This document shows positions 39,934-49,098 of a stretch of 64,000 bases of DNA, in pieces. Each line of letters starts with the position of its first letter. Position 1 is the first letter of the stretch. Location: positions 576,001 to 640,000 of the forward strand of contig JBMNJT010000002.1 in assembly GCA_050951805.1 (NCBI GenBank), read 5' to 3'. The translations under genes were made by a program, and so were the position numbers. The DNA comes from Bacillota bacterium (GTDB taxonomy: Bacteria; Bacillota; DTU025). Below the pieces are notes generated by a model, which was given only the letters and a program-made list of their open reading frames with translations, searched no databases and was not told where the DNA came from.

Positions 39934-42900
39934 GTGTCGAGATCCTCTATTTGGAGGCGCGGCGCAATTGTTGCGATCATCGCAGTCATGCTCGCAGGTT
40001 TTGCTGCAAGCGCAGCGCCGAACCTGCCGGCTATCCCCAAAACCCCTATGGGTTCAGAAGAGTTCGTACCCGTCAGTAGGGGATACAGAGAGCCAGAATA
40101 TATCGACGGCGAGATTATCGTGCAGCTCAAACCGATGCTTACAGTATCCAGCGCGGTTGGTATGGAAGCTGCTGTTGAAGGATTTCACCTGCTCAATGTC
40201 GAGCTTGGGGCCGAGATAGTAGAATCGATGAGCGTTGGCCACGATGCTGAGCTGTTCCTGGTGCGAATTCCAGCCAGCATGAGCGTGGATGAGGCTGTTT
40301 TGACATATCAATCGAAGAAGTTTGTCGAACACGCCGAGCCAAACTATCTCTGGTACCCAGAGGCTCCGGTTTTCCCGAATGACCCTCACTTTGTGCGAAC
40401 CTGGGGTATGCACAACATAGGACAGGATTTTTCTCCTGGCCTGTTTTGGGAGAAGGGCATTCCCGGAGCCGACATCGGCGCGCCTGAAGCGTGGGGCGTG
40501 CGCACCGACGCATCTTCAGTTATAGTGGCCGTCATTGACACGGGTATAGATATCAATCACCCGGACCTTGTGAACAACATCTGGGTCAATGAGGTCGAAC
40601 TTGACGGAGTGGATGGAGTCGATGATGATGGCAATGGCTACATCGACGACATCTACGGATGGGACTTTGCCAACAACGATAACAGTGTATTTGATGATGC
40701 GGTAGCTGATCGCCATGGGACACACTGTGCAGGCACGATCGGCGCTAAGGGCAACAACGGTCGTGGGGTTGCCGGTGTGGCCTGGGATGCTCAGATCATG
40801 TCGTGCAAGTTCATTCACGGTCAGAGCGGATCAACGTGGAATGCGATCAAGGCGATTGAGTATGCTTCGATGATGGGTGCCAGGATCGCAAGCAATTCTT
40901 GGGGCGGTGGTGGGAAGAGCGAGTTCTTGGAGAAAGCTATTGCAGATTCAGGCATGTTGTTCGTCGCTGCTGCAGGAAATGCGGGCGTGGACAACGACAT
41001 CATTCCACATTACCCATCTTCTTACGATCTGCCAAATGTTATCGCTGTGGCTGCATCTGACTGGAACGATAACCTAGCTAGTTTCTCCTGCTATGGCGCA
41101 GAGAGTGTAGACTTGGCAGCTCCTGGCTATTGGATTCTCTCTGCATATGCGGGCAGCACTGGATATGTATGGATGGGCGGCACGTCCATGGCCACTCCGC
41201 ATGTAAGCGGCGCGGCTGCGTTAGTAGCAGCGGAGTATCCAGAGATGCCGCTGTATCCCGGAGCGGAGGGGTGGAGCGAGGGTCAACTCACAGTCAAGGA
41301 TGTCCTGCTCTTGTCGGTAGACAGGGGCCCAGCTTTTGCAGGCCGGATGACTTCTGGAGGCAGGCTGAACGTGGGCAACGCCATCAAAATGGCATTCCCC
41401 GCCGTGATCGAGTCCGCGGCGGCGGATGTCACGTTCGGGTCAGGTCCGCTGGCGGTCAACTTCTCGGCTCAGGTCGAGAATTCAGTCGCAGTGGCCCAGT
41501 GCTGGTGGTCGTTTGGCGACGGCTCGGCTCCTGTGTACTCCTACGACGCGTCACATACCTACACCGAGGAAGGCGTTTATCTGGCATGGTTTAATGTTCG
41601 GAGTCATGCCGGCATAGAGTCGAAATGGCCGGTGCAGGTTGTTGTGGCGAATCCAGGAACCATTGTGTACATCGATGACGATGGAGGGTTCCCTTTTGAG
41701 AACTTCTTCTTGGCTGCGTGTGAGACAGCTGGGCTTGACTGTGTGGTCGTCGACTCCAGGTATCCGCTGGGCCTTCCCGACGACTTCAATGATAGGTTGT
41801 TGGTGTGGAATACTGCTTTCTCATGGAGCGATACGCTCCTACCGGATCAAGAAGAATTCTTGGCCAGATTCCTGGACAATGGCGGCAGGCTTCTGATGAT
41901 ATCTCCCGATTATTTGTATGACATGGGAGACCTGACGCCCTTTGCCGAGCAGTATCTGCACGTATGGGACTATGCAGACAACATTCCGATGGGACAGTGG
42001 GACGGCATTGCCGGAGATCCGATCACCGACGGCATGTCGATTACGGGAGAACTAGGCATGGAGCTTGAGGATGCCCTCTGGCCCGATCTCAACGCTAGGC
42101 CCATTTTCGAGGGCGAGTTTGTGAGTTACACGCTATGGCCTGCGCTAAGATACGCTGATGAAACCTACCGGGTGGTATTCACCACTGTGCCGTGGGAAGA
42201 GCTCCCCATGGTCTATGAGGATGAAGAGGGCAACGTGGTTAACCCTGATCCCAACAACTCGGCGTACTTTCTCACCAAGGTCTACGACTACCTGATGCGT
42301 GAGATAAACACCCCGCCCACAATCGACAAGGTCGAGGCAAGCACCTACTTTGCGGAAGTGGGCGAAAAGATAGCGTTCACGGCCAAAGCTCATGACGTCG
42401 ATGGGGATGCCCTCATGTACAGCTGGGAGTTTTACAGCATTGAGGATCCCATGAGGGGCCAGACAATCCAGGTAGCTTTCGATGAACCCGGCGTGTACGA
42501 AGGCATTCTGATGGTGGAGGATGACCGGGGCGAATCGACAAGGTTGCCCATCGTCGTTGTGGTTGTCAATCCAGGTGCGGTGCTGTTCGTAGATGACGAC
42601 GATTCAGATGGTGACACCGAGAGCTATTTCTTCGACGCTTTCGACACCATCGAACAGGAATACTTGGCAATCACTCCCGACCTCGCAATAGGGGAGAGCG
42701 GCGCGAAGGCCGGGCTTGAGCGTTTCAATGTGGTATGGAACTGCGGCGAACTCGGTGGCCTGAACGAACTGGAACAGATGGCGGTTGCTGATTTCCTCGA
42801 TAAGGGCGGCTCGCTGTTCCTCGCTGGTCAGGAAGTCATGTTCGAGTTGGCGTACGGATCTTCGAACGGCATGAAGTTCGCCCGGGATTATCTGCACGTG

Positions 42901-47800: not shown

Positions 47801-49098
47801 GGCCTGTAGGTTCGAAGGCCAACGTTACGGCTGAACATTCCGAGTCGCGAACCCAATCGCATTCAGAGAAGGGCGGGCAACCGATAGGCAAGGAAGTGCT
47901 CGTTATATCGAATAGAGTCGGAGGAACCATAGATATCGGTCCGAAGATAGATGTCTCATATGTTCTGTCTCAGGTGGACGACAACGAAGCCGACGGGTTC
48001 GAACGGGAGGAGCACACTCTGTCTATCACGGGGCGGCAGAGCTTCTTCGAAAACAAACTGACATTGGGTGCTGGGTACGAGACGGTCCAAAGTGAGAATT
48101 TGATAAGGCCAAGCAGCTCATATCTTCAGGTAAATCTGCGGGGCGATGCGACGTTCAAAATCGATGCTCTTTCTGTGTCGGCGCTGTATCGAAAACCTGT
48201 GAAAACTGTGGCGCCCGGAGGGGCGGACCAACGGGTAACAGGCACTGAAGAGGTCAGCCTGAACGCGCAGTGGGGGAAACAGCTCGGTCCAATAGCGCTC
48301 AAGGCATACTACAGACAGACTTTGCGCGACGATATTGCCACAGAACGAAGGTTCGACGATAAACGCGCTGAAGTTCGCGCGACATTGCCAGTGCTTTCGT
48401 TCAATGAGAATGCTCTGACTCCAAGCACGGTGTTGAAGTGGGAGAAGACTGTGCCCTATTCCGGCCAGGCCAAGGAGGGCATCACTGTTCAGGGAAGCCT
48501 GTCGGGTAATCTGGGCTCCTTCCGGACATCAGGCGGGATTAACTTGAAGCGAACTGAGTATCCCGGCATCGAAAAGCTGACTTTGGATACTGAGGTCTTC
48601 GCTACCCTCAGTTCGACAACGCGCGGGCGGTTTGTTCCCCAGTTCGATCTGAGGTGGAAACGATCGAGTTCTGAGAGGGCGGGGTTGGGGGTTGTAGCGA
48701 GCGATTCGGTGACAGGAACAGCTCGGGCAATCTACACTCCCAAACAGGGACTGAGCAACGTAGCATCGCTGGCATACTCCCTCACATCATCATCAGGATC
48801 GATGGGAGTGCAGAAGCATTCTGTGAGCCTTCAGGATACTATCGATTACAGGTTGAACGAGAAGGTTACGATAACAGGGGAGGCTTCTGTGAGGTCGACC
48901 GCCCCCGAACTTGGGGCTCTTGCTGTAGGCGAGGGTTCTGACATCAGGGGAGTGCTCAAGAGTGGGCTTCGTTACAGAATCAGTGACATGTGGTCGTTTG
49001 GCGCCTCAGCGGGCTATAATGTATACAAGGCTCCGGCCAGTCAAAACGGGTTTGCAAAAGGGCTGACTTTGGAAGCGGGGCTGAGGGCAGTATTCTAG
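44869..49098 (+). CDS. Large SprA(Sov)-like outer-membrane beta-barrel with inserted beta-propeller
   Basis: Signal peptide ending AYA; LSLNVRGQV..LTISANLD..LRGLE..QGIAAKKTFQG and FNLGLSIAQGSEKVYLNDVLLQKNIDYTIDYELG resemble SprA segments; long amphipathic-strand C-terminus ending LRAVF. Confidence 0.75.
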   Translation: MRAFCCRRRGPSACRAFSLTIFVLASAVLISFMASEAPAYAAEKQEAPLQIGGDVEFKLRCAWGDSAALLGTGYTPGRFDLMQLLSLNVRGQVAPGLTISANLDNRKDGNLQVMELKLDGDPLKGRFGGLSFRSQTPYTSYSARLRGLELNAKFPEVEMGVTFGRVQGIAAKKTFQGNTAQEVIVYEPAATYGPSPSASGFSASIDGMEYYLLSSSYDPDFMGCWIRYDDEDELGEGRTLEETLNLWDLGYLYLEDPEARGGISAGGKVPLARGQFITVSSSEEMLALRSEIRDLLRGQIQSMIRSYNSEHGLVGSAQKRYPFVYGSETETAFLDDLISRHAHIIAGMEDGGPGTTVLDARADSYLRRRLYDLGQTDVVPGSVAVEVRKAGKFLSVETELPLIYQVAYDIGVIEFDFPPSFFDIYDAVRIKYRHTVAMGIFNLGLSIAQGSEKVYLNDVLLQKNIDYTIDYELGILTILRTLGPDDVVKVEYEYFRGPFGAVADYKSNFYGAIFGWTPNENLKLKMDVAVYSDDPKSAAMPEATSTMPNTHAIIGFSGQYDNKGLNLSTDLAFSHDQFPFDDNRKTNAANRISGIMGAVDAESKSYLLISHSDGVSVGGDEFRNYSIGSGLASPVVRDVASADENWFFATDGGLTVLSATPGPAGQNPFDYVSNWRRIYMSAGLPSNNLTCVATTPWSVWVGTADKGVACADLADLDTWTVYRKSAGSGLPSDAISDIAYDPAHDLILVGFGDGVAVLEGAHFEHELAGVGVTSIVSATSAEAVDGWRTFAAAKDGVYARDEAGGWTKVVDDSIVKDPAAIEVWNRLLWIGGRNGLWVWDGRNCDIVEATRGYSITALGVGRGRKYEGGETLWAGTAGIPAGTGKDPYRIVVFEVLTPEIVAEHDGTELGVSGHDPRRYVEIAAQDHTTDGYAARATARYSLGSGSIYGNYETLAPGFTKLGQTSRQAVDVWRLGTQWPVGSKANVTAEHSESRTQSHSEKGGQPIGKEVLVISNRVGGTIDIGPKIDVSYVLSQVDDNEADGFEREEHTLSITGRQSFFENKLTLGAGYETVQSENLIRPSSSYLQVNLRGDATFKIDALSVSALYRKPVKTVAPGGADQRVTGTEEVSLNAQWGKQLGPIALKAYYRQTLRDDIATERRFDDKRAEVRATLPVLSFNENALTPSTVLKWEKTVPYSGQAKEGITVQGSLSGNLGSFRTSGGINLKRTEYPGIEKLTLDTEVFATLSSTTRGRFVPQFDLRWKRSSSERAGLGVVASDSVTGTARAIYTPKQGLSNVASLAYSLTSSSGSMGVQKHSVSLQDTIDYRLNEKVTITGEASVRSTAPELGALAVGEGSDIRGVLKSGLRYRISDMWSFGASAGYNVYKAPASQNGFAKGLTLEAGLRAVF

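Follow-up and report, generated by a model that had tools for sequence, protein, structure and literature searches.

Can the core of a type IX secretion system (T9SS) occur in a Firmicute? The literature that we found on the T9SS places it in the Bacteroidota or the Fibrobacteres-Chlorobi-Bacteroidetes (FCB) group only. The question is raised by a 64,000-nucleotide stretch of a Bacillota genome (the window; G000:C2:576001-640000, where G000 is the source genome and C2 the contig that bears the genes discussed here). Three consecutive + strand open reading frames (ORFs) at window positions 39934-49098 (the cassette; genes A, B, and C) encode a secreted protease with a T9SS-like C-terminal domain (CTD), a PorV/PorQ-family barrel, and a giant barrel related to SprA. 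We consider it likely that they belong to a reduced T9SS-like system for export and surface display that uses dedicated carriers and is built on an outer-membrane core. The first-pass annotation of the window had proposed a minimal T9SS relative in diderm Bacillota; the relationship is upheld by the families or homology of all three parts, and the word "minimal" has to be dropped, as the genome encodes eight cargo/carrier pairs.

The genes of the cassette, with the sorting tail of gene A, are as follows.

39934-43803, + strand: gene A, 1289 aa, secreted S8 subtilase cargo
43519-43800, + strand: type A T9SS-like CTD of gene A, aa 1196-1289
43804-44709, + strand: gene B, 301 aa, PorV/PorQ-family outer-membrane barrel
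44842-49098, + strand: gene C, 1418-aa ORF, half-size SprA-like giant outer-membrane barrel

A protease with a sorting tail and a PorV/PorQ-family barrel

The protein encoded by gene A contains a fervidolysin-type prodomain (Fervidolysin_NPro-like, E 8.8e-6), a subtilase domain (Peptidase_S8, E 3.9e-53, aa 195-441), and two PKD domains (PKD_4, E 1.3e-15), all from Pfam. Residues 1210-1279 of its 1289 score 26.0 bits on the T9SS tail model TIGR04183 (Por_Secre_tail; cut-off 23); searched in six frames, this tail drops to 22.3 bits, that is, just below the cut-off. The seven remaining CTDs of the genome and the CTDs of relatives align with this one, and the earlier description of gene A as a signal-peptide protease with a type A-like CTD is borne out.

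Gene B starts at the base directly after the stop codon of gene A. Its product carries the family signature GMGARALGMGGA...YYNPAGL on which it had originally been recognized and passes the PorV_fam model (NF033709; 108.9 bits against a cut-off of 90). It stays below the equivalog cut-offs for PorV (NF033710; 42.5 against 250), PorQ (67.4 against 220, E 1.1e-18), and PorV2; Pfam yields sub-threshold UPF0164 and Toluene_X matches only, and a single-sequence search of the PDB returned nothing at E ≤ 1. As read from the translations, the proteins encoded by all three genes begin with a signal-peptide-like hydrophobic stretch, and those encoded by genes B and C end in Phe. A terminal Phe is typical of β-barrel outer-membrane proteins.

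Gene C as a divergent relative of SprA

Gene C follows gene B after a gap of 132 bp; it probably starts at an invariant Met10, which would give a protein of ~1409 aa. No Pfam family matches it. On the SprA/Sov model TIGR04189, aa 440-502 align with model positions 588-652 (E 4.9e-10, 37.3 bits), the sole match to this model in the genome. The gene C family comprises 25 proteins of 1317-1475 aa, and every source name is Firmicutes, Bacillota, or Clostridia; all of the 22 aligned members match TIGR04189 locally, so the match is a property of the family and not chance.

Profiles, not single-sequence searches, connect gene C with SprA in the PDB: the family profile reaches the SprA chains 6h3i and 6h3j (E 2.8e-4), with aa 40-142 aligned to SprA 140-249, a second stretch of similarity that is colinear with the match at aa 440-502. 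When a profile of the N-terminal 600 residues was run against 1.84 billion representative proteins, 1459 were found at E ≤ 0.001 and 95 at E ≤ 1e-30; outside the family of gene C these include proteins of 1300-1930 aa. Six of the latter were scanned on TIGR04189: P0119 (210 bits) and P0138 (243 bits) exceed the cut-off of 200, P0148 scores 176 bits and also passes the Pfam model SprA_N, P0117 gives a weak local match only, and P0107 and P0141 give none. An alignment of 16 short SprA-like proteins (A7; its individually scored members are P0119 and P0138), every one of which matches TIGR04189 at E ≤ 1e-10, was then compared with the gene C family using hhalign; aa 55-575 correspond to A7 positions 106-591 with a probability of 99.86% (E 4e-31, 452 columns). 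In the ESM Atlas, only the cluster of gene C itself was found above a score of 0.9. Gene C can be placed in the SprA lineage in its wider sense, as a very divergent protein of half the size, and lies outside the curated SprA equivalog; the SprA-like character that had been read from its translation of roughly 1410 aa is substantiated by its N-terminal homology and by its best structural match (below).

As a separate observation, the domain at aa 440-502 (window 46159-46347) is similar to distal tail and tail tube proteins of phages (DUF2460/TIGR02217, NF052337), and domains of this type are repeated 5-7 times in other large uncharacterized proteins, for example, P0107.

Predicted architecture of gene C

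The gene C protein was folded with AlphaFold as two overlapping 1200-residue pieces, aa 1-1200 and aa 219-1418, each with 21 homologues; the mean per-residue confidence (pLDDT) is 78.8 and 78.3, respectively. Strands were assigned with DSSP, and the predicted segments are as follows.

45004-45429, + strand: about 7 N-terminal barrel strands, aa 55-196 (aa 1-1200 model)
45430-46383, + strand: first insert, mixed α/β, aa 197-514, including the domain at aa 440-502
46384-46599, + strand: four central barrel strands, aa 515-586 (both models)
46627-47631, + strand: β-propeller of the Reg_prop (two-component-regulator) type, aa 596-930, between strands 11 and 12
47650-49095, + strand: 25 long C-terminal barrel strands, aa 937-1418 (aa 219-1418 model)

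The total over the two partial models is 7+4+25 = 36, the same count that had been made by eye, with low confidence for the N-terminal seven, which DSSP places within aa 59-196; passages of Lauber et al. (PMC10994853) likewise give 36 strands for SprA. The propeller is predicted with a pLDDT of ~90, and the family profile matches the PDB entries 4a2l (E 4.6e-12) and 3ott (E 1.5e-6) over this region. Strand parity suggests that the propeller and the insert at aa 197-514 would lie on the extracellular side, where SprA bears its cap.

When the models were compared with the PDB using Foldseek, SprA chains ranked first for both the aa 219-1418 model (E 3.2e-12 to 4.2e-12) and the aa 1-1200 model (E 2.6e-15 to 1.2e-10). 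Propeller and LptD matches rank after them, the best LptD match having an E-value of 2.7e-9 (aa 219-1418 model). SprA is thus ahead of LptD for the partial models, which bears on the fold of the LptD or TonB type that the first-pass annotation had named as one that would refute it; given these weaker matches, and with LpxC not found in this genome, we rejected an LptD-type reading of gene C.

PorZ is a propeller-based protein. Seven of 22 members of the gene C family match the PorZ model (best E 3.2e-7), and we presume that these matches arise via the inserted propeller.

Eight cargo/carrier pairs and one large barrel

Across the whole genome, TIGR04183 identifies eight C-terminal tails (the seven cargos besides gene A score 31.8-38.4 bits) and NF033709 identifies eight barrels, all past the cut-off (100.1-117.8 bits); in each of the eight cases the PorV-like gene directly follows a tail-bearing gene. 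Hidden Markov models built from the genome's own copies return exactly eight CTDs and eight PorV-like barrels among 20,365 stop-to-stop frames, that is, there are no orphans. Gene C is single-copy, so the census is 8:8:1, and seven of the pairs are distant from the gene for this barrel. The cargos, with lengths of up to 3217 aa, are giant proteins of the S8/PKD type. With eight pairs per translocon, the system is not the minimal one that had been supposed.

Two of the cargo genes seem to be split (G000:C1:46757-56007 and G000:C7:71326-76342). In the first, a 1651-aa ORF that has the S8 domain but no tail is followed, after a gap of 204 bp, by a 1363-aa ORF that has the tail but no S8 domain; in the second, a gap of 8 bp separates ORFs of 804 and 864 aa. 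Frameshifts, assembly errors within repeats, or genuine pseudogenes could account for this.

In trees of the PorV-like barrels and of the CTDs (calculated without copy C1b, which is near-identical to C1a), the pair adjacent to the large barrel groups with its orthologues from other genera and is split from the other pairs of its own genome (support 96/97 and 100/99). Tail type and carrier type go together, which suggests that the genes form cognate pairs of two classes; the related genomes share a history, so co-evolution is unproven.

The arrangement is not restricted to this genome, and the order of the cassette is found again in related genera as well as in further families of the phylum. 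We scanned short flanks of the barrel gene at 17 loci in relatives (L001 and L006 are from the same genome, as are L003 and L004) and found a PorV-like gene, a CTD gene, or both beside it at 12. The PorV-like gene is adjacent at 10 loci (L001, L002, L004, L006, L008, L009, L011, L015, L016, and L019), the CTD gene also at 10 (L001, L002, L004, L006, L008, L009, L011, L013, L014, and L016), and both at eight; neither was found within the flanks at L003, L010, L012, L017, and L018. The barrel profile matches 23 of 401 sampled genomes of the phylum, three of which (G165, G250, and G277) match over the aa 411-520 domain only, in smaller ORFs. PorV_fam (E ≤ 1e-10) occurs in 20 of these 23 genomes and in 30 of the 378 others; TIGR04183 (E ≤ 1e-5) occurs in 13 of the 23 and in nine of the 378.

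In G165 (C1:3166845-3168697) and G277 (C11:36414-38334), genomes from two further families of the phylum, a much smaller ORF (805 and 596 aa, respectively) that bears only the aa 411-484 domain of the barrel lies downstream of a PorV-like gene in the same orientation. These may encode still smaller, or different, partners of PorV-like barrels.

Predicted contact between tail and carrier

We folded the PorV-like barrel (aa 34-301) together with the 95-aa CTD, each with its own alignment, alongside three controls. The interface score ipSAE is 0.91 in three runs and 0.00 in the best control, the pLDDT of the partner is 83-84, and ≥93% of the contacts are common to the runs; in the calibration of the tool, which is only rough for folds with own alignments, the mark is reached by 58 of 80 solved complexes and by two of 110 mismatched pairs. 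The predicted interface involves conserved motifs of the CTD, including an invariant Arg90-Leu-Val near its C-terminus, and, on the barrel, a conserved N-terminal segment and the loop at aa 114-135. Docking of the CTD on the PorV-like barrel, an expectation of the first-pass annotation, is therefore predicted by the model.

The host

The source genome is a draft of 2.75 Mb in eight contigs, with an estimated completeness of 97% and an estimated contamination of 2.73%. The cassette is located within a contig of 1.56 Mb that also bears the genes for BamA, Spo0A, the signal recognition particle (SRP) RNA, and 16S rRNA. Omp85/BamA was found in each of five genomes tested (this genome, at C2:697830-698744, and four barrel-bearing relatives), and the Spo0A model matched only Bacillus subtilis among the control genomes. 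From BamA and Spo0A, the host is, at the level of its gene content, an endospore-lineage diderm Bacillota with an outer membrane; the placement in Bacillota that had been proposed also agrees with the record names of the relatives' sources and with the partial 16S gene (an unclassified fragment). The presence of BamA and Spo0A on the cassette contig argues against a chimeric assembly, as does the even GC content (0.50-0.57 across the window, with a GC skew that is positive, even, and unbroken at the cassette), and we used the former to rule out contamination.

LpxC was not found in G000, G084, and G162, all of which have Omp85/BamA; G390 and G263 have both. The order that includes G000, G084, and G162 may have an outer membrane without classical lipopolysaccharide (LPS).

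Motor, sortase, and other components

In Flavobacterium, according to passages of Lauber et al. (PMC10994853), removal of the motor leaves substrates trapped on the translocon. We searched for further T9SS parts in the source genome and the four barrel-bearing relatives; none of the 14 control genomes had a match past cut-off, so these searches are without a positive control, and the negative results are to be read accordingly. GldL, GldM, and GldN were matched in none of the five genomes, and GldK gave a single sub-cut-off match (19.8 bits, G390). PorU (NF033707) was not found in the source genome, and the relatives match the CTD-like tail of the model only (942-1095; ≤32 bits against 420). 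PorP/SprF was matched in none of the three genomes of the genus, nor in any control genome. The earlier remark that the window holds no PorKLMN-like gene thus extends to the genome; the search it had called for, covering PorK/L/M/N/U and other CTD proteins, returned no motor or sortase and eight CTD proteins.

The genome does encode a lone ExbB/ExbD pair (G000:C2:1199985-1202016; a MotA/ExbB-family gene and ExbD, followed by a 327-aa protein without a family) ~575 kb from the cassette, as well as a flagellar MotAB pair; both are far from all eight cargo/carrier loci. Because the ExbBD pair exists and the motor searches lack a positive control, independence from a motor stays an inference.

A proposed mechanism and its rivals

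By analogy with the SprA-PorV system of Flavobacterium, the S8 protease would be brought into the periplasm by Sec; its CTD would be captured by a PorV-like barrel that is docked on the one SprA-like barrel of 36 counted strands, and cargo and carrier would then exit the pore sideways into the outer membrane. The CTD would probably be retained, with each giant protease displayed at the surface on its own PorV-like barrel, because neither PorU nor LpxC was found and each cargo gene adjoins its own PorV gene. Transport, docking of the PorV-like barrel on the large barrel, and retention of the CTD are steps that we infer; the energy could come from folding of the passenger outside the cell, from the ExbBD pair, or be made less necessary by a weaker hold of the smaller pore.

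In its most specific form, this proposal holds that SprA, PorV, and CTD constitute a self-sufficient machine for export and display, without a GldLM/PorKLMN motor, in Terrabacteria-type diderms in which LpxC was not found; one translocon would serve eight pairs, each cargo permanently on its own PorV, and either the T9SS of Bacteroidota would be a motorized derivative or the present system would be a stripped-down one. We put this form forward tentatively, as one possibility.

Several observations weigh against the export reading. Gene C fails the TIGR04189 equivalog cut-off (37.3 against 200 bits); searched alone against the PDB with phmmer, it gave nothing useful (best E 0.64); and its C-terminal 488 residues align with A7 colinearly but weakly (probability 35%, E 4e-4). 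The Foldseek TM-scores against SprA are low (0.30-0.32), as the models are partial and the protein is a half-size relative, and the N-terminal strands were counted where the pLDDT is 41-64 (aa 40-130). The PorV-CTD fold may pass by resembling the solved SprA-PorV-CTD structures (8GL6, etc.), in which case it would report likeness and not binding. In the phylum, the 30 genomes with PorV/PorQ-like matches and no barrel (the matches are weaker) and the non-independence of related genomes temper the co-occurrence counts. Finally, a motorless system needs another means of cargo release, because removal of the motor traps the Flavobacterium substrate.

This last point leads to the rival that survives best, in which the same SprA/PorV/CTD core is powered: ExbB/ExbD or an unrecognized GldLM analogue would pull PorV and cargo off the large barrel, that is, the system would be a complete T9SS variant in which the motor has been replaced, and would not be motor-independent. 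The lone ExbBD pair with its 327-aa family-less neighbor is a candidate for that role, passages of Lauber et al. (PMC10994853) state that Flavobacterium needs energy for substrate release from the translocon, and none of the 14 control genomes provided a positive control for the GldL, GldM, GldK, and GldN searches. However, the ExbBD genes are beside none of the eight cargo/PorV loci, no such gene is beside the cassette in the window, and a single ExbBD pair is expected in any diderm for Tol- or Ton-type functions; we regard a powered core as rather unlikely.

A less probable alternative separates anchoring from export: the PorV-like barrels would hold the CTD proteases, as in the PorQ-PorZ and PorV-PorU pairs, and the large barrel would do other work (e.g., glycan or peptide uptake via its propeller). 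The strict one-to-one adjacency of the eight pairs, seven of them far from the large barrel, and a propeller of the ligand-sensing Reg_prop type fit this idea. Yet the large barrel is homologous to a known translocon, its gene keeps its place beside an orthologous cargo/PorV pair that is conserved between genera, and PorV_fam accompanies it in 20 of the 23 genomes that match its profile. Moreover, anchoring leaves the passage of the cargos through the outer membrane to be accounted for; no alternative candidate emerged, although no search was aimed at other secretion systems. We consider anchoring without export improbable.

The remaining idea, that an FCB-group contaminant was binned or mis-assembled or that gene C is an ordinary barrel of the LptD or TonB type, could appeal to the eight-contig draft, its 2.73% estimated contamination, and the LptD and BtuB chains among the Foldseek matches, but it is largely refuted and has next to no likelihood: the cassette is inside a 1.56-Mb contig with BamA, Spo0A, SRP RNA, and 16S, GC content and skew are even across the window, those members of the barrel family that have a name are all from records labelled Firmicutes, Bacillota, or Clostridia, the barrel profile matches three single-contig genomes in the phylum (G263 and G390 with long matches, G165 with a local domain match only), the LptD matches fall short of those to SprA by 3 to 10 orders of magnitude, and LptD would have no substrate because LpxC was not found.

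Comparison with known systems

The closest known system is SprA-PorV-CTD of Flavobacterium johnsoniae (PDB 6H3I, 8GL6, and 8GL8; Lauber et al., 2018, 2024), which has the same three parts: a giant 36-strand barrel (counted here on partial models), a PorV-family barrel, and type A CTD cargo. The N-terminal 520 residues of gene C are homologous to SprA, SprA is the top structural match, and an interface between CTD and PorV is predicted. The differences are also considerable: gene C has ~1410 aa, whereas the solved SprA chain has 2403, and, unlike SprA of F. johnsoniae, it carries a Reg_prop-type propeller between strands 11 and 12; the GldKLMN motor or hub, PorU, and PorP were not found here (in searches without a positive control); instead of one general carrier there are eight paralogous PorV genes, every one adjoining the gene for its own cargo; and, in contrast to the F. 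johnsoniae system, the present one belongs to an endospore-lineage Bacillota whose genome yielded no LpxC.

In Porphyromonas gingivalis, the attachment complex contains the pairs PorU-PorV and PorZ-PorQ, that is, a protein that retains its CTD is held at the surface by a barrel of the PorV/PorQ family. The surface display that we propose would share this principle, with two differences: the partners are S8 proteases rather than a C25-type sortase or a carrier of anionic LPS (A-LPS), and the pairs are encoded side by side and multiplied eightfold.

According to Gorasia et al. (2022; PMC9143113), type B CTD proteins use dedicated neighboring PorP/SprF-like barrels for surface anchorage, a layout of one cargo and one neighboring outer-membrane barrel that resembles the present one as far as that account goes. 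Here, in contrast, PorV/PorQ-family barrels go with type A tails, and a PorP-family gene was not found (again without a positive control).

Short SprA-like proteins of 1300-1930 aa from other uncultured bacteria (e.g., a protein from an Elusimicrobiota metagenome-assembled genome) are also SprA relatives of reduced size. Gene C is more divergent than these (37 bits on TIGR04189, compared with 176-243 for the three that were scored), and the inserted propeller sets its family apart from them.

Passages of Abby et al. (2016; PMC4793230) report the T9SS from no clade except the Bacteroidetes, where 60 of 97 genomes had it, and passages of Lauber et al. (2024; PMC10994853) treat it as a system of the Bacteroidota. 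We found no description of T9SS-like systems in diderm Firmicutes, Limnochordia, or other non-FCB phyla in the literature that we searched, which agrees with the claim that such a relative is undescribed in diderm Bacillota; supplementary tables (e.g., those of Abby et al., 2016) were outside the scope of this search and could hold matches. The novel elements are a Bacillota family of translocons that bears an inserted propeller, the 8:8:1 census, and the division of tails and carriers into two cognate classes.

Other features of the window

The cassette is flanked upstream by a MATE-type ORF and downstream by two tRNA genes, followed by the SRP RNA gene and the partial 16S gene. Two further features are as follows.

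44741-44756, + strand: terminator-like hairpin with a T run after it, between genes B and C (132-bp gap)
62917-64000: partial 16S gene, unclassified fragment

A terminator scan of the region returned 12 sites where 8.1 are expected by chance (a promoter scan, eight where 5.8 are expected), neither of which exceeds chance, so the hairpin is weak evidence alone; it could attenuate read-through into gene C and so set the lone translocon below the level of cargo and carrier.

At 1104-1235, a Moco/tungsten riboswitch (55.4 bits; gathering score, 36) precedes a transporter-like operon. At 32817-37146, an ORF for a 1094-aa transporter, assigned by eye to the resistance-nodulation-division (RND) type, overlaps by 11 bases with a 351-aa ORF (36091-37146) for a secreted-looking protein without a Pfam or NCBIfam family. 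The 351-aa protein could be an unrecognized outer-membrane partner of the RND-type pump.

Significance

If the export and display reading is true, the range of the T9SS would be extended to the other side of the bacterial tree, and the finding would bear on how the outer membrane of Firmicutes is equipped. It would also offer a natural test of the role of the motor, since the core seems to be present without one. The layout of one carrier per cargo suggests a simple and portable way to display very large enzymes on the outer membrane.

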